21,751 nucleotides of DNA from the IMG/VR virus record IMGVR_UViG_2734482547_000006, one strand, 5' to 3'. The translations under genes were made by a program, and so were the position numbers. Positions 15,495 through 21,751 of the stretch are shown one piece after another. Below the pieces are notes generated by a model. The model saw nothing but the letters and a program-made list of their open reading frames with translations, did no database searches and was not told the DNA's origin. Position 1 is the stretch's first letter. Each line of letters opens with the position of its first letter. Source of the stretch: a virus (lineage: Duplodnaviria; Heunggongvirae; Uroviricota; Caudoviricetes).

Positions 15495-15746
15495 TTAGTC
15501 CTGATTTTTATCCACCCTGAGTAGTTCGCGCAGAGCAAAGGCATCCCCTTTTCTGGCAAGCTTAAACAATGCCGCTCGTAACTCGGCTTCACCTTTCGCT
15601 CTGCCCTTACGGATGGCCGCATAAAAATCTGTCATTGCTTCCCGATTTTCTTTCAGTCGGTTCAGATCAACATCCAGAACGTCAGCGATTTGTTGTGCAG
15701 TCATCCGGCACGCTGCCAGAGACTCGACTTTCGAATACGGAATCAT
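15495..15746 (-). CDS. Small hypothetical protein (83 aa), possibly DNA-binding, immediately upstream of the small terminase gene
   Basis: ATG at 15744-15746 with GGGGG 6 nt upstream. Basic, helical C-terminus. Overlaps the 3' end of the glycosyltransferase gene by 65 nt. Could be a second DNA-recognition component of the terminase. Confidence 0.45.
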   Translation of the reverse strand: MIPYSKVESLAACRMTAQQIADVLDVDLNRLKENREAMTDFYAAIRKGRAKGEAELRAALFKLARKGDAFALRELLRVDKNQD

Positions 15747-16614
15747 TTGTCACCCCCATTGATATGCAGGGTGTCTTCTTCCTGTATTTTTCGTGAAGGA
15801 TTTTTACTGCAGCGTTGTTCCAGGTGACCTGATGGTGAATGCGTTTATGGCTGGCACCCATCAGTGAGATTTTTACGCACGACGGCGAATACATGACGGA
15901 GTAAAAACTTTTAACGTAGGTTCCGGAATCCAGATACAGCTCGGTCATTCCGCCGCTGTTTTTCTGCGTCTGTTTCTGCCCTAACTGGACAGCACCGATC
16001 GTCATAAACAATTCACCACAGCGACCGAGATTCGTGTACGTATTCACATCCTCGTTAATGCGCCCCATGAATGAGAACGGTCGATCAACCGAACAGATAA
16101 AGCTGTTCATTGCCTTGCGTTTCACCCACGAAGCATGGCCGCCATTGTCACCAAGAAAATCCCCGCCCTGCGACATAGCGATGGAAAGCGCGGGTATTGA
16201 TTCGTAATACGCCAGCATTTCAGAAAGGATCGCATCCAGTTTCCTTATCGGGAAATAGGCCTGGTCATAGTTGCGATCCACCCGAAACTGGAACTCGTGA
16301 TAATCATCATCGAGCTGAATGAAGTATTTACACCCGACCAGTTTTGCCAGGTCGAAACAGGCATTACGGGCGTAAAAAATTGAGCGGCGATCACCAAAAT
16401 TATCGGCTTCGTCAAAACGACTGGCAATATCGGCTTTGGAAAATACCAGCACCTGTTCACCAAATTCAGCCATGTACTGATGCCGTGTCTTATCTTCATC
16501 ATCAACAACGATAAAAATTTTCCCGGTATAGCCAGCACGACGCAACGTCCGGTAAGTCAGAACTTTGTCCGGTCGCCCGTGAGTCAGAATAAAGGCGCAA
16601 AAATCATCACGCAT
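15682..16614 (-). CDS. Soluble GT-A fold (GT2-like) glycosyltransferase
   Basis: Contains CAFILTHGRP...KIFIVVDDED and ARNACFDLAKLVGCKYFIQLDDD, which fit the GT2 consensus around the DXD motif. No hydrophobic membrane segments seen. Likely start is ATG 16612-16614 (MRDDF...), preceded by GGGGAGGAGGAGGAAT and overlapping the ParB-like stop by 8 nt. Confidence 0.6.
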   Translation of the reverse strand: MRDDFCAFILTHGRPDKVLTYRTLRRAGYTGKIFIVVDDEDKTRHQYMAEFGEQVLVFSKADIASRFDEADNFGDRRSIFYARNACFDLAKLVGCKYFIQLDDDYHEFQFRVDRNYDQAYFPIRKLDAILSEMLAYYESIPALSIAMSQGGDFLGDNGGHASWVKRKAMNSFICSVDRPFSFMGRINEDVNTYTNLGRCGELFMTIGAVQLGQKQTQKNSGGMTELYLDSGTYVKSFYSVMYSPSCVKISLMGASHKRIHHQVTWNNAAVKILHEKYRKKTPCISMGVTNDSVFESRVSGSVPDDCTTNR

Positions 16615-17398
16615 ATTCCTCCTCCTCCCCGCCATGCATGATCTCCACCATGCGCTGCGTCATTCGGACAAATCCATTTTCAATAGCCTGCTGATAATCA
16701 ATGATCACCAGCGCCGACTCCTCGAAAAGGCACTGAATTTCAGCGGGGGCATGAGCGTAATAGTCCGCAATTCTGCTGAAATTAAACACTGTGTGACGTT
16801 CTGCCGCACACAGGAGGAATTTCTCAATATCAAGATCAAGGGACGCCGAACGTATCCGGCTGATCAGCTCCTGAGTTTTCGTATCGTCGTACAGTTCACT
16901 GATATCCGGTTTACCGCCCGACGGCTCATAAACAGGCGTATCAATTTTCGTCGTATACGGCTCCTCCTCATTTCCTGTACCGGGCAAAACATCCGTCAAC
17001 AGTTCATCAATTTCTGTCGGGATGAAGCCTGTCAGGGAGACATCAAAATCAGCATTGATTAGGTCCGACAGCTCCATCCGCAACAGATCTTCATCCCAGC
17101 CAGCATTCATCGGCAGGCGATTATCTGCCAGGCGGTACGCCTTTTTCTGCTCATCCGTCAGGCCAGACAGAACAATGACCGGAACAGAATCCATTTTGAG
17201 CATTTCAGCCGCCATAACACGACCGTGACCCGCAATAATTTCGCCCTTTTCGTCAATCAGCACCGGATTAGTCCAGCCGAATTGCTTAATACTTTCTACC
17301 AGTTGTGCCACCTGCTCAGTACTGTGCGTCCTGGCATTGTGCGCATACGGTGACAATTCTTGTAATGGGCGATAGACTATCTTTAATTTCTCGCTCAT
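16607..17398 (-). CDS. ParB-like nuclease domain protein (ParB/Srx N-terminal domain, acidic C-terminal half)
   Basis: N-terminal YRPLQELSPYAHNARTHS...PVLIDEKGEIIAGHGRVMAA matches the ParB N-domain pattern including the GxxR box. The C-terminal ~150 aa is strongly acidic. It occupies the position of ynaK in the K-12 Rac prophage map as I recall it. Confidence 0.7.
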   Translation of the reverse strand: MSEKLKIVYRPLQELSPYAHNARTHSTEQVAQLVESIKQFGWTNPVLIDEKGEIIAGHGRVMAAEMLKMDSVPVIVLSGLTDEQKKAYRLADNRLPMNAGWDEDLLRMELSDLINADFDVSLTGFIPTEIDELLTDVLPGTGNEEEPYTTKIDTPVYEPSGGKPDISELYDDTKTQELISRIRSASLDLDIEKFLLCAAERHTVFNFSRIADYYAHAPAEIQCLFEESALVIIDYQQAIENGFVRMTQRMVEIMHGGEEEEYA

Positions 17399-17535: not shown

Positions 17536-18993
17536 TTAGGAGCGCCAAAAAAAACCTGAAAACAATATAATAACAGGATAAATTTCAAGGCGACCAAGAA
17601 TCATAGCTATGCACATTAAATATTTTGCAATGTCATTAAGCACTCCGAATGACGATGCAGTAGCCCCAAAACCTAATCCCATATTATTAATACATGCAGC
17701 CACTGTTGCAAATGATGTAAGAAAATCATATCCCATACCATTTAACACCAGTATAAAAAACACCGTGAAGAGAGTATAAAGAAAAAAGAAACTCCATACA
17801 GACCTCATTACACGATCTGTAACTATCTTCCCTCCTACATTTACACTTAACAACGCTCTGGGATGAGAAAGTTGATTTATCTCGTGTTTGCTTTGTTTGA
17901 AAAGTATAAGAAATCGAAGTGACTTAATTCCACCACAGGTTGAACCGATACATCCCCCAAAGAAACTTGACAACAGCAAAAACACTATCGTGTGCGTGGG
18001 CCAGTTTGCATAATCCTGCGTAGCTAAACCATTATCAGTGAGCATGGAGCTGGCAAGAAAAAACGAATGAATAAAACTTCCATGCAAGTCATACATACCT
18101 ATATGCCAGACCTGGAAAGAGGTAACAATGATCACCCCTAAGGCTATTAACAGAAAGAAACGAAGTTCAATATCTCTGATTAAAGGTTTTATCGTTTTTC
18201 TGCTAATAACAATATACCAAAGAGTGAAGTTGAAAGCCGATAGCAGGGAAAAAGAACCAGCCACCAGCTCAACCAAATAGTTATTAAAATATCCGATACT
18301 CTCGCTATGAGTTGAGAAACCACCAAGCGAAACTGTGGAAATCCCGTGACAAATAGCATCAAACAAAGGCATTCCTGCAAGTCTATAACAGACAATACAA
18401 GCAATACCTAATAAAGAATAAGTTATCCACAGTGTCCGTGACGTATCGGCCAGGCGGGGAGTGAGTTTGTCATCCTTAAATGGCCCCGGCATTTCTGACT
18501 GATAAAGCTTTGCACCACCAATACCCAATAATGGCAATACTGCAACCGCCAGAACAATAACTCCTAAACCACCTATAAAATTTAACTGTGACCGATAGTA
18601 CAAATATGCCCGAGGTAATGAACTAACATCATCAATTACAGTTGCTCCTGTTGTTGTTATTCCAGAAACCCCTTCAAACAGAGCATCAATGAACGTTAAA
18701 TTAAGTTCTGAGTCAATCCATAAAGGGAATGCACTAATAACAGAAAACAAAATCCAAAACATTACAATTATAATAAACCCATCACGAGTACGTAATTGAA
18801 TGCCAGATTTCTTAGTTGTATACCACGCTCCGCCACCAATGCAAAAAAATATAACGAAAGTTATAAAGAAAACGAACAGGCTTTTTTCTTTATAAAACAA
18901 TGCTACAACCATTGGTGGCAACATTGAAAGACTATAGAGCCAAACCAGGAACCCACACATATGAGTAACAACTCTTACATGAGATGTATTCAT
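17536..18993 (-). CDS. trkG: Potassium uptake protein TrkG (TrkH/TrkG family membrane transporter), Rac-prophage-type moron
   Basis: Multi-pass hydrophobic protein; from MNTSHVRVVTHMCGFLVWLYS... it is 485 aa, matching the size of E. coli TrkG as recalled. AT-rich codon usage contrasts with the flanking phage genes. Sits right after Rz/Rz1, as in the Rac prophage. Confidence 0.9.
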   Translation of the reverse strand: MNTSHVRVVTHMCGFLVWLYSLSMLPPMVVALFYKEKSLFVFFITFVIFFCIGGGAWYTTKKSGIQLRTRDGFIIIVMFWILFSVISAFPLWIDSELNLTFIDALFEGVSGITTTGATVIDDVSSLPRAYLYYRSQLNFIGGLGVIVLAVAVLPLLGIGGAKLYQSEMPGPFKDDKLTPRLADTSRTLWITYSLLGIACIVCYRLAGMPLFDAICHGISTVSLGGFSTHSESIGYFNNYLVELVAGSFSLLSAFNFTLWYIVISRKTIKPLIRDIELRFFLLIALGVIIVTSFQVWHIGMYDLHGSFIHSFFLASSMLTDNGLATQDYANWPTHTIVFLLLSSFFGGCIGSTCGGIKSLRFLILFKQSKHEINQLSHPRALLSVNVGGKIVTDRVMRSVWSFFFLYTLFTVFFILVLNGMGYDFLTSFATVAACINNMGLGFGATASSFGVLNDIAKYLMCIAMILGRLEIYPVIILFSGFFWRS

Positions 18994-19130
18994 ATCTAAA
19001 TATTCTTTCAATTATAACCACCTTGCTGCAATATTATGATTATACTGTATAAAATTTAACTCCTCTTAGATCTTACTTCACTGTTCCTTATGAAACAATC
19101 ATCAAAATGAATCATATTGTAGTTAAGATT

Positions 19131-19595
19131 TTACTTTAAACACTGCTCGGTTATGTATTGCTGAGCACCTTCAAGTTGGGCCTGCATCATTACCAGTCGT
19201 TCCCGGAGGGTGAAATAATCCCGTTCAGCGGTGTCTGCCAGTCGGGGGGAGGCTGCATTATCCACGCCGGAGGCGGTGGTGGCTTCACGCACTGACTGAC
19301 AGACTGCTTTGATGTGCAACCGACGACGACCAGCGGCAACATCATCACGCAGAGCATCATTTTCAGCTTTCGCATCAGCTAACTCCTTCGTGTATTTTGC
19401 ATCGAGCGCAGCAACATCACGCTGACGCATCTGCATGTCAGTAATTGCCGCGTTCGCCAGCTTCAGTTCTCTGGCATTTTTGTCGCGCTGGGCTTTGTAG
19501 GTAATGGCGTTATCACGGTAATGATTAACAGCCCATGACAGGCAGACGATGATGCAGATAACCAGAGCGGAGATAATCGCGGTTACTCTGTTCAT
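19131..19595 (-). CDS. Rz: Spanin, inner-membrane subunit (i-spanin) Rz
   Basis: Near-identical to lambda Rz as recalled ([58 protein letters not shown]...). Start taken at the ATG that overlaps the endolysin stop in an ATGA arrangement. Confidence 0.9.
19190..19375 (-). CDS. Rz1: Spanin, outer-membrane lipoprotein subunit (o-spanin) Rz1, embedded out of frame within Rz
   Basis: 61 aa with lipobox VVGC and the proline-rich stretch [16 protein letters not shown], near-identical to lambda Rz1 as recalled, fully nested in a different frame of Rz. Confidence 0.85.
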
Positions 19596-20089
19596 TGCTG
19601 ACCCCACAAACAGATTTCACGCTCAATCTCACGACGAGTCATGAGACCTTTCCATTGCTTACCGCCAGCATATGTCCAGCGACGTAGCTGATCACATGCG
19701 CCTTTGATATCGCCCTGGTTTATTTTGCGAAGAAGCGTCGATGTTCTGAAATTGCCAGCGCCCACGTTGTAAACGAACGAGTAAAGAGCGCCGCGCGTTG
19801 TTTCCGGTATATCGACTTTGATGTACGGGTTAATTTGTCTGGCGACAGTGGCAAGGTCTTTATTCAAGAGTGTTTTGCATTCTGCTTTGGTATACGTTTT
19901 ACCGAGCATGATGTCTTTTCCTGTATGCCCGTGACATACAGTCCATACACCAACAATATCTTTGTATGGTATGTAGCTGACACCTTCCAGACCATCGTTA
20001 CCACTTGGGCCAGTGATTAACACTGATGCTATAGCAATTGCTCCGCCACCAATAGCAGCAGCAACGACTTTTCGTAATGATGGAGGCAT
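19592..20089 (-). CDS. R: SAR endolysin (T4-lysozyme-like muramidase with N-terminal signal-anchor-release domain), phage 21 R-like
   Basis: 165 aa; N-terminal weakly hydrophobic Gly/Ala-rich SAR segment [20 protein letters not shown] followed by a lysozyme-type sequence that matches phage 21 R as recalled. ATGA overlap with the holin stop. Confidence 0.85.
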
Positions 20090-20304
20090 TATTCACCTCT
20101 CGCAGCCTTGCGCTTATCTTCTTTAATCTTGAAATAAAGGTTTGTCAGGTACGTCAGCAGGCCAAATACCAGACTACCCAGCACACCGATTGCAGCCCAC
20201 TGTGACGGAGTTACTCTATCGAGCAACTGTAAAAACCAGTAGCCAGCACTGCCTGCGGAGGTGCCGTAGGCAATGCCTGTTGAAATTTTGTCCATGGATT
20301 TCAT
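20089..20304 (-). CDS. S: Pinholin (phage 21 S-like class II holin) with a dual-start motif
   Basis: [26 protein letters not shown]...[15 protein letters not shown] matches the S21 pinholin as recalled, with antiholin start MKSM and holin start MDK. The track ORF extends upstream to 20361, but that extension is unlikely to be translated. Confidence 0.85.
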
Positions 20305-20403: not shown

Positions 20404-20430
20404 AATATAAAAAGCTCGCCGTAGCGAGCT
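20404..20430 (-). terminator. Intrinsic terminator (AGCUCGC-UACG-GCGAGCU plus T-run) between lipoprotein gene 1 and the holin gene; possible tR'-like element
   Basis: On the minus strand a perfect 7-bp stem with a 4-nt loop is followed by TTTTTATATTGCA, about 100 bp upstream of the holin start. Confidence 0.5.
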
Positions 20431-20555: not shown

Positions 20556-20951
20556 CTAACCTCGCATGTCAAAGCCAGATTTCTGAAAATCTCTGTAGAC
20601 TTCCGGATTGTTGAAGGCCGGAAATTTGGCTTTATGAGCTGCGGACTTTATCGCTTCGCAATAGGCTTTATCACCGTTACTGGTAGATATTTTTAACGCC
20701 GTGCCATCCTGAGAGAATTCCATATGCAACCTGCATTTTTTCCCTTTCCAGTTATGCGGCTCATCAAGTTTGGCATTAATTGCAGCTCTGATTCCCCGCG
20801 CTTGCGCCCCCCATTCATCCTGATCATCCCAGCGTCCTGAACTGCAACTACCTGTAGCAGTAGTTTTGTGGCAATCTGAAGGGTGTAAAGGTGTGCATCC
20901 CGCAACAAAACCGACCCAAAAAGTCAACATAACGATTTTCTTTAATCCCAC
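20556..20951 (-). CDS. Lipoprotein with TolA C-terminal (domain III)-like domain, diverged paralog
   Basis: GTG start with GAGGAG 6 nt upstream. Signal peptide MGLKKIVMLTFWVGFVAGC with lipobox VAG-C and Thr at +2. C-terminus GKKCRLHMEFSQDGTALKIS..GDKAYCEAIKSAAHKAKFPAF..EVYRDFQ aligns with the TolA C-terminal segment GKTCTLRIKLAPDGMLL....GDPALCQAALAAAKLAKIP....VYEVFK. Confidence 0.7.
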   Translation of the reverse strand: MGLKKIVMLTFWVGFVAGCTPLHPSDCHKTTATGSCSSGRWDDQDEWGAQARGIRAAINAKLDEPHNWKGKKCRLHMEFSQDGTALKISTSNGDKAYCEAIKSAAHKAKFPAFNNPEVYRDFQKSGFDMRG

Positions 20952-21101
20952 TTCTTGCTCCTCAATCCATTAAAATCTCAGCAATAGTAGTTGTTACGTC
21001 CGCCACTGGCTCAGAGCTGACTATCCGCTAAATTTAGCTCAGTGCCGTAGCTGTGTCAGAACAAACCTAAGCCGAAACCGTTTATTACAAAACAATAAAT
21101 A

Positions 21102-21530
21102 TCAGGGTTTAAAATCCAGCACCCCATTTTGAAATACTTTATATACTTCCGGCGAAGGGGGGGCAGGTATATCAGCATTCTTTATCGCATTCATCGCTTC
21201 ACGACATAAATCGAGGTCTCCACTTTCTCTTTTAACCTCCAGTAGAAGGCCATTCGGGGCCATATGCATTCTCAGTGTACACTCTTTTCCTGAATACTTA
21301 CTCGCATCCCCGAACTGTTTTTCGATGGCGCTCTTGATTTGATGGGCATACAGACGGATATCCTCACTAACATCAGAAGTACGTTCAGATGAACTCACAT
21401 ACTGTGTCTCTATTGCTTTATCGGAGTAATATGATGTACGGTCATGATAATTTGTCGATACAGCATCAGTGCACCCGATAATAATCCCACTAATAATCAA
21501 CGTAAGAATTGATGCGCTACGAAAACCCAT
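21102..21530 (-). CDS. Lipoprotein with TolA C-terminal (domain III)-like domain
   Basis: Signal peptide MGFRSASILTLIISGIIIGC with lipobox IIG-C and Thr at +2. C-terminal ~85 aa (YAHQIKSAIEKQFGDASKYSGKECTLRMHMAPNGLLLEVKRESGDLDLCREAMNAIKNADIPAPPSPEVYKVFQNGVLDFKP) closely parallels the recalled E. coli TolA C-terminus (...YAGQIKSAIESKFYDASSYAGKTCTLRIKLAPDGMLLDIKPEGGDPALCQAALAAAKLAKIPKPPSQAVYEVFKNAPLDFKP). RBS GAGGAAAA precedes the ATG. Confidence 0.75.
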   Translation of the reverse strand: MGFRSASILTLIISGIIIGCTDAVSTNYHDRTSYYSDKAIETQYVSSSERTSDVSEDIRLYAHQIKSAIEKQFGDASKYSGKECTLRMHMAPNGLLLEVKRESGDLDLCREAMNAIKNADIPAPPSPEVYKVFQNGVLDFKP

Positions 21531-21559
21531 TTTTCCTCACATATGTCATATAGTAAAGG

Positions 21560-21589
21560 ATTATATATACCGTTGTTTTGGACGCTCAA
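21560..21589 (-). promoter_or_regulatory. Candidate sigma70 promoter for lipoprotein gene 2
   Basis: Minus strand TTGAGC, 18-bp spacer, then TATAAT (plus 21560-21565), about 30 bp upstream of the ATG. Hexamers read by eye only. Confidence 0.25.
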
Positions 21590-21641: not shown

Positions 21642-21751
21642 GGTAATGACTCCAACTTACTGATAGTGTTTTATGTTCAGATAATGCCCGATGACTTTGT
21701 CATGCAGCTCCACCGATTTTGAGAACGACAGCGACTTCCGTCCCAGCCGTG
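21642..21751 (-). mobile_element. insB: IS1 insertion sequence, terminal ~110 bp including the terminal inverted repeat and the 3' end of insB; element continues beyond the window
   Basis: GGTAATGACTCCAACTTACTGATAGTGTTTTATGTTCAGATAATGCCCGATGACTTTGTCATGCAGCTCCACCGATTTTGAGAACGACAGCGACTTCCGTCCCAGCCGTG matches the IS1 end as recalled, with about one mismatch. The minus strand encodes the InsB C-terminus ...[24 protein letters not shown] with stop at 21657-21659. Confidence 0.85.

Follow-up and report, generated by a model that had tools for sequence, protein, structure and literature searches.

The virus record IMGVR_UViG_2734482547_000006 of IMG/VR, whose 21,751 nucleotides are referred to here as the window, carries part of a Rac/phage-21-like prophage with two small adjacent genes, A and B, each of which encodes a lipoprotein ending in a copy of the C-terminal domain (domain III) of the envelope protein TolA, hereafter TolA-III. 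Gene A (21102..21530, minus strand) starts with ATG and encodes 142 amino acids, and gene B (20556..20951, minus strand) starts with GTG and encodes 131. An earlier note, made from the sequence of the window alone, had placed two open reading frames at these positions, and both are indeed there, intact and on the minus strand. It had also given each gene its own ribosome-binding site (RBS), and these can be read from the sequence on the minus strand as GAGGA-N5-ATG for A (21531..21545) and GAGGAG-N6-GTG for B (20952..20970). The GTG start of B is supported by its plasmid homologues, which carry ATG at the same codon; the RefSeq start for B is shorter here and longer on plasmids, and the lipobox is unchanged by either. 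The GC content is 0.42 in A and 0.46 in B versus 0.48 in the remaining prophage, a small gap in both cases.

The N-terminus of the protein encoded by gene A reads MGFRSASILTLIISGIIIGC followed by TDA, and that of the gene B protein reads MGLKKIVMLTFWVGFVAGC followed by TPL. Both have an Arg or Lys within residues 1–7 and a lipobox, in agreement with a PROSITE PS51257-type lipoprotein pattern (TLIISGIIIGC with Cys20 in A; LTFWVGFVAGC, ending in VAGC, with Cys19 in B), and both carry Thr at position +2, which bears out the signal peptides proposed earlier. The lipobox Cys is invariant across the aligned homologues. Under the +2 rule for lipoprotein sorting, a Thr in this position fits sorting to the outer membrane, where both proteins probably reside. 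Across those representatives of the wider B family in which a lipobox was found, position +2 holds Ala, Thr, Ser, Gly or Val and in no case Asp. The layout of A comprises the signal peptide and lipobox (residues 1–20), a weakly conserved linker with predicted disorder (21–53) and the TolA-III domain (54–142), whose C-terminus, VLDFKP, is the sequence of the β3 strand. In B the domain spans about residues 44–131.

The assignment of both domains to TolA-III, which the earlier note had based on conserved residues, was upheld by profile, sequence and structure searches. The Pfam profile PF06519 (TolA C-terminal), which has a gathering score of 25 bits, matched A with 82.6 bits (E 2.4e-23, profile positions 4–96 of 96) and B with 54.6 bits (E 1.3e-14, positions 10–92 of 96). 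Searching the sequences of the PDB aligned residues 55–142 of A with residues 334–421 of Escherichia coli TolA (E 5e-28) and residues 51–129 of B with the same protein (E 5e-9), and in a gapless alignment to E. coli TolA 334–421 A is identical at 52 of the 88 positions (59%) and B at 27 of 88 (31%). AlphaFold2 (AF2) models gave a predicted local distance difference test (pLDDT) of 82–96 in the domains and low confidence in the N-terminal 41–50 residues. When compared with the PDB using Foldseek, these predicted structures superposed on 2x9a_B at 0.7 Å over 88 columns (template modelling (TM) score 0.95) for A, and on 3qdp at 1.1 Å over 86 columns (TM score 0.92) for B, so that the likeness to TolA-III extends to the predicted fold. 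Superposition on the TolA-III chains of the complexes with IF1 g3p, M13 g3p and colicin A likewise gave 0.7–1.6 Å. Two domain cysteines (C84 and C109 in A, C73 and C98 in B) do not vary within either family and correspond to the disulfide pair of E. coli TolA-III.

Neither protein is a TolA. Profiles of the full-length protein are matched at positions 293–386 of 387 by A and 304–382 of 387 by B, that is in the C-terminal part only, and the inner-membrane anchor (domain I) and the helical domain II are absent from both. The scores against the equivalog model NF007065 (107.8 for A and 53.7 for B) stay below its cutoff of 213, and the two genes sit outside the tol-pal operon, between the Q region and the prophage lysis genes. 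They are not Rz1-type o-spanins either, as the lysis cassette has its own Rz and Rz1 and A and B match TolA/TonB-type profiles only. Over their whole length both match PHROG 5772, a family of 'unknown function'.

The pair is 99–100% identical in 80 IMG/VR viral contigs, which, as far as each of them reaches, all have the genes in the order Q > A > B > S21-type holin, and a 1.3-kb region comprising A and B is found in 772 of 5426 complete E. coli genomes (about 14%). In the viral contigs this cassette occurs together with Q genes of two unrelated types and with lysins of two types; because the order holds across these differing partners, A-B can be described as a cassette in the Q–S cargo slot, in which other phages carry different cargo. 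In the window the slot is confirmed on the side of the lysis cassette, which lies downstream as the earlier note had said, and the Q side here is occupied by the end of an IS1 element; it is in the relatives that the full Q–S position is seen. In a survey of one genome per species, which matched 22 loci, A and B occurred together with lysis genes in the Shigella flexneri locus only.

The two genes had been described as tandem, divergent paralogs. A local tandem duplication can be rejected, since A is 59% identical to the TolA-III of its host versus 29% to B. After its own variants, the nearest domain neighbours of A are full-length TolA proteins, including that of E. coli; E. coli/Shigella clusters were the only ones to contain A-type proteins, and the contexts of A that were examined are all lambdoid prophages, among them Stx-like prophages, in whose Q–S region a 66%-identical variant of A occurs without B. 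B-type proteins, on the other hand, form 368 clusters from Citrobacter, Enterobacter, Klebsiella, Raoultella, Serratia and other genera, with loci also in Leclercia and Kluyvera, and they group with other short lipoproteins and not with TolAs. The B lineage is 78–89% identical across many genera. A and B are separate lineages, of which that of B is widely mobile and would be the older one. A profile search of 1.84 billion representatives placed 93 proteins of ≤165 amino acids among its best 150 matches, most of these with a lipobox, and the combination of a lipobox with TolA-III is therefore an established, if uncharacterised, architecture.

In RefSeq, gene A is tagged by the annotation pipeline PGAP as a 'tolA' pseudogene, 'incomplete, missing N-terminus' (the same tag is found in a relative, locus L002 8703–8963), and this label could be taken to mean that A and B are decaying, functionless fragments of a captured tolA. 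The label arises because A scores 75.6 against TIGR02794 (cutoff 59.45) through the C-terminal part of the profile alone. It is an annotation artefact and no evidence of decay. Both reading frames are undamaged, each is preceded by an RBS and has acquired a lipoprotein signal peptide, both proteins match PHROG 5772 full length, and the frequency and near-identity of the pair in genomes and viral contigs are not those of debris. Moreover, both genes are under purifying selection, with ratios of non-synonymous to synonymous substitutions (dN/dS) of 0.08–0.25 in the domains; in A the ratio rises from 0.25 for the domain to 0.49 for residues 1–53, the N-terminal part with its linker, and in B it is 0.08–0.11, with 0.08 in the N-terminal part with the linker (residues 1–45). 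We consider decay highly improbable. In the meantime, the label of a broken tolA keeps gene A out of sight in gene-content analyses.

The signals around the pair resemble those of an independent unit, with a promoter-like site upstream and a terminator-like site downstream, both kept in relatives. A sigma-70 promoter-like site (21560..21589, minus strand; TTGAGC-18-TATAAT, 10 of 12 matches) lies about 30 bp before the start of A and is conserved in relatives without IS1. Between B and the holin gene there is an intrinsic-terminator-like hairpin (20413..20430, minus strand), consisting of AGCTCGCTACGGCGAGCT and then TTTTATATTG, with an identical copy in the relative locus L002; the terminator which the earlier note had put after the pair can be equated with this hairpin (20430..20413). 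In the relatives without IS1, Q is followed by a promoter-like site and a strong terminator, about 540 bp, the TTGAGC-18-TATAAT site and A, and the first two of these elements are probably pR' and tR'. No tRNA genes were found between Q and A.

The earlier note had called these lipoproteins prophage-encoded, which is correct for the window and too narrow for the family. Outside E. coli, B is a solo chromosomal gene with a different neighbourhood in each of four genera: in Enterobacter it is flanked by glutathione peroxidase and RidA-like genes, in Serratia by nrdDG and a GmrSD/HEPN pair, in Citrobacter it adjoins the ars operon and in K. oxytoca it is flanked by TetR and acetyltransferase genes. 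The Serratia marcescens gene (locus L028 6957–8736), which adjoins proteins of the GmrSD family and with a HEPN domain, suggests a defence-island setting. About 600 plasmids also carry B-type genes at 80–90% identity; of the 917 records that matched, 488 are conjugative. A further group of about 310 plasmids, mostly of Klebsiella, has a third type of TolA-III lipoprotein, which shares about 35% identity with B; on a Klebsiella IncFIB/FII plasmid (L037 5217–6246) this protein has 144 amino acids and its gene follows a thioredoxin-like (DsbA/TraF-like) gene.

The plasmid contexts raise the question of whether the B lineage acts in conjugation, for instance in mating-pair stabilisation, entry exclusion or establishment in the recipient, the prophage copy being a by-product of gene flow. 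The B-type gene stands directly after nikA-nikB, nikB encoding the relaxase, on all four of the I-complex plasmids that were opened (IncK2/Z, IncI1/B/O), and on pO157 an 88%-identical copy (locus L035 5965–6396) lies after psiB-psiA-hok and before toxB, next to the psiB/psiA genes typical of leading regions. pO157 is, however, typed as non-mobilizable, B also occurs alone on chromosomes and in prophages without transfer genes, and the restriction of A to E. coli/Shigella clusters and lambdoid prophages does not fit such a role. We regard it as quite improbable.

A fourth type was found on 10–12-kb CloDF13-like bacteriocin plasmids of K. pneumoniae (loci L038 1841–2574 and L039 6859–7592). There, the TolA-III lipoprotein WP_001237044 (123 amino acids, PF06519 2e-24, 39% identical to A, ending in APLDFRP) is followed directly, in tandem, by WP_072354022, a secreted protein of 121 amino acids with a TonB C-terminal domain (PF03544, 9e-11), and the two genes adjoin bacteriocin, immunity and release/lysis genes. 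An identity of this pair with genes K and L of CloDF13 was considered and rejected: the slot is occupied in CloDF13 (L045 3813–4728) by K and L, which are unrelated to the pair, and tblastn found no TolA- or TonB-like sequence in CloDF13. Combining the tips of TolA and TonB in this manner would fit decoys for both energy-transducer routes.

What we tentatively consider the most likely function of A and B is indeed that of decoys for Tol-dependent colicins and filamentous phages. As envisaged, both proteins would be attached to the outer membrane through its inner leaflet, and each would present one TolA-III domain on a tether of 25–35 residues. In the lysogen they would be expressed as a two-gene cargo, which in Rac/phage-21-like E. 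coli prophages lies between the Q antiterminator region and the gene for the S21-type holin. A TolA-III domain tethered under the outer membrane could capture molecules that need the real, inner-membrane-anchored and energised TolA, such as the translocation domains of group A colicins and related bacteriocins and the g3p-N1 domain of filamentous phages. As A and B would have no link to the TolQR motor, these ligands would be held unproductively as they emerge from the outer membrane, and the carrier would become tolerant.

The ligand-binding faces of TolA-III are known. The TolB N-terminus, colicin N and g3p-N1 bind by β-strand addition to β3 (A415–K420), and colicin A contacts β2 at residues 375–380 (PMC4339652; PMC7391070). 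Gene A encodes a protein that retains LDFKP of β3 and L-L-x-x-K of the colicin A box, i.e. half of that box, and the 66%-identical variant of A retains the same residues; A would thus be a close mimic of E. coli TolA on the β3 face, to which TolB, colicin N and g3p bind. Free TolA-III exported to the periplasm of wild-type cells is said to have caused colicin tolerance and leakiness (Levengood-Freyermuth, Click and Webster, 1993). The reverse case has also been described, since periplasmic pIII-N1, by sequestering TolA, makes cells tolerant to colicin A and lowers phage uptake by 4 log (PMC10424213).

Several points weigh against the decoy proposal. First, B retains only D418 of the seven β3 residues and two of the six of the colicin A box, and because these residues are mostly lost, binding of E. 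coli TolA ligands by B is doubtful; of the mimicry that the earlier note had attributed to both proteins, the fold stands for both and the β3 residues for A, whereas B has lost the side chains of the β3 face and, judged by its residues, would mimic the fold and not the binding surface. Second, the linker of B is more conserved than its domain, which a simple tethered decoy leaves unexplained. Third, a functional periplasmic TolA-III should draw TolB away as well, and this competition could make the envelope leaky in a tol-like manner, at a cost to the cell. Fourth, no PADLOC-DB 2.0 model matched A or B at E ≤ 1. Fifth, the promoter and the terminator are pattern matches, and promoter-like sites are no more numerous in the region than expected from shuffled sequence. 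Finally, A-B adjoins the S21 holin without exception in the 80 viral contigs, which would also fit a role related to lysis.

The linker of B deserves separate mention. It reads PLHPSxCHKTTATGSCSSGRWDDQDEWG (window 20864–20894; residues 20–47), contains two invariant extra cysteines and has a conservation of 0.96 versus 0.93 in the domain among 121 representatives, with low confidence in the AF2 model. Such strong conservation points to a specific interaction of its own. A likeness to the TolB-binding epitope of colicin E9 was not supported, as the linker had no PDB sequence match at E ≤ 10. Together with the β3 face of B, which is unlike that of TolA, the linker would favour the view that B, and perhaps A, has a native envelope role without any part in defence, being an outer-membrane docking or adaptor lipoprotein that would bind a periplasmic or outer-membrane partner through its linker motif and TolA-III-like domain and would be carried as a fitness gene. 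The conservation of the B lineage across genera, its dN/dS of about 0.08 and the size and diversity of the family of stand-alone TolA-III lipoproteins are in line with this view. The chromosomal sites are, however, non-syntenic between genera and the gene always travels alone, so that B behaves as an accessory and not as a housekeeping gene; it has no co-occurring partner gene, and it is heavily enriched on conjugative and bacteriocin plasmids. On balance a native role seems unlikely. If A and B are decoys, the diverged surface and conserved linker of B would probably serve a different or additional ligand.

Downstream of the pair lies the lysis cassette, which looks to be of the phage 21 type (19131–20304). 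The phage-21-type holin gene S (PF04971; 20089..20304, minus strand), always directly downstream of A-B, encodes an S21-family protein with an M-K-S-M dual-start motif; it is followed by the genes for a lysozyme (19592..20089, minus strand), whose Gly/Ala-rich hydrophobic N-terminus resembles a signal-anchor-release domain, for Rz (PF03245; 19131..19607, minus strand) and for the Rz1 lipoprotein (19190..19375, minus strand), which is embedded fully in Rz.

This neighbourhood leads to the second use that the earlier note had suggested for the two proteins, namely the modulation of Tol-Pal. By binding the N-terminus of TolB, or another partner of TolA, without applying force, their TolA-III domains would turn off the local mobilisation of Pal, and the weakened outer membrane would aid the final lysis by the phage, the release of bacteriocins or the production of vesicles. 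The strand to which the TolB N-terminus binds is the β3 that A has kept (PMC4339652; PMC7391070), the pair always adjoins the S21 holin in the viral contigs, the Klebsiella plasmid copy stands beside a bacteriocin operon with a release/lysis gene, and a review of Tol-Pal mentions that changing TolB interactions could regulate vesicle production (PMC7391070). However, the prophage already has a full set of holin, endolysin and Rz-Rz1, a terminator-like site stands between the pair and the holin, and no lysis or release genes are near the B-type genes on I-complex plasmids, on pO157 or at the solo chromosomal loci. The affinity of TolA for TolB is also weak, 40–200 µM (PMC7391070), and strong expression would therefore be needed. 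The plasmids and chromosomes that keep the gene under strong purifying selection would pay dearly for a tol-like phenotype if it were constitutive. Modulation of Tol-Pal is in our opinion an improbable explanation. A role as lysis accessory in particular is disfavoured as the main one by the relatives on plasmids and chromosomes without nearby lysis genes.

Between the two uses, the distribution of the genes appears to lend indirect support to the decoy and to take support away from the modulation of lysis: the spread on elements that never lyse their host and the pairing with a TonB tip on a bacteriocin plasmid are better accommodated by a decoy than by a lysis helper. A more general proposal, to which we give less credence than to the decoy function of A and B themselves, is that stand-alone TolA-III lipoproteins, sometimes accompanied by a secreted TonB C-terminal domain, constitute a widespread and so far unrecognised single-gene immunity class in Enterobacterales, borne by prophages, conjugative plasmids, bacteriocin plasmids and chromosomal islands. 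Such periplasmic co-receptor decoys would confer broad tolerance to Tol- and Ton-dependent bacteriocins and to pilus-dependent filamentous phages, which, if true, would explain why decoy genes are found on plasmids that build the pili used by filamentous phages.

The remaining window corresponds to the late region of a Rac/phage-21-like prophage, with genes for terminase, portal, coat, tube, tape measure and tail L. At its other end, 111 bp upstream of the start of A, is the IS1 end (21642..21751); Q is absent from the window because this IS1 end cuts off A-B and the lysis genes from the Q and probable pR'-tR' region that relatives have. Several complete E. coli genomes cover the full-length query, the IS1 end included. 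The potassium transporter gene trkG (17536–19011, GC 0.376) lies between Rz and a ParB-like gene, as in the Rac prophage. At 15682–17398, just upstream of the terminase genes, a gene for a TET-associated glycosyltransferase (PF20691, E 6e-35) overlaps the end of the gene for the protein with a ParB N-terminal domain, and the two may form a DNA-modification module; the ParB-like gene is annotated as a ynaK pseudogene in one close relative.

The earlier note knew of no function assigned to this gene pair, and this agrees with what we found: a full-text literature search returned no functional study of these TolA-like lipoproteins, PHROG 5772 is of 'unknown function' and PADLOC had no match. A 2020 review of Tol-Pal (PMC7391070) contains neither the word 'prophage' nor 'paralog', and the supplement of a ciprofloxacin transcriptome lists 'tail fiber protein' and not gene A or B. 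The similarity to TolA as such was already known and can be read from RefSeq product names, from Pfam and from PHROG 5772. In A and B this known domain of the host is found re-packaged as a lipoprotein that stands alone and is carried by mobile elements, with a plausible role so far unreported.

Group A colicins, related bacteriocins and filamentous phages share TolA-III as their gate, which can be blocked by laboratory constructs that flood the periplasm with one of the partners. If A and B act as decoys, a portable tolerance factor would be present in the complete E. coli genomes that carry the pair, on pO157, on I-complex resistance plasmids and on Klebsiella bacteriocin plasmids. Such decoys would shape competition in the gut, affect the prospects of antimicrobials based on colicins or phages, and could account for some of the differences in colicin sensitivity between isolates that have so far had no explanation.

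Compared with known systems, A and B are closest to TolA-III itself (E. coli TolA 334–421; PF06519; PDB 1TOL, 2X9A, 3QDP/3QDR and 1S62), with which they share the family, the predicted fold and both cysteines. TolA differs in having its anchor, domain II, the link to the TolQR motor and a place in the tol-pal operon, whereas A and B have a lipoprotein signal and a short tether and are found on mobile elements. Cor of φ80 and N15, Llp of T5 and TraT of F are outer-membrane lipoproteins which exclude incoming phages or DNA to the advantage of the carrier; like A and B they are small and encoded by mobile elements, and A and B otherwise resemble them in the proposed mode of action only. There is no sequence relationship, as no Pfam, PHROG or PADLOC match points to these proteins; furthermore, Cor and Llp block the surface receptor FhuA, whereas the proposed target of A and B is the TolA-binding segment of the invader, which would be reached by mimicry of a periplasmic co-receptor. 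The artificial periplasmic competitors (exported g3p-N1, colicin T-domains and free TolA-III) follow the same logic of titration that is proposed for A and B, but they are laboratory constructs, and A and B are natural genes on prophages and plasmids whose products are predicted to be lipid-anchored. Among the morons that lambdoid phages carry between Q and S, such as stx, nanS-p and others, the slot downstream of Q and tR' and upstream of S is the same and the content varies among phages; the cargo here is a copy of a host envelope domain, unlike the toxins or enzymes of the other Q–S morons. Finally, the pair on the CloDF13-like plasmids of Klebsiella shares with A-B the architecture of lipobox and TolA-III and the tandem arrangement of small 'tip' domains on a mobile element, and differs in the partner, which is a TonB_C domain with an ordinary signal peptide instead of a second TolA-III.

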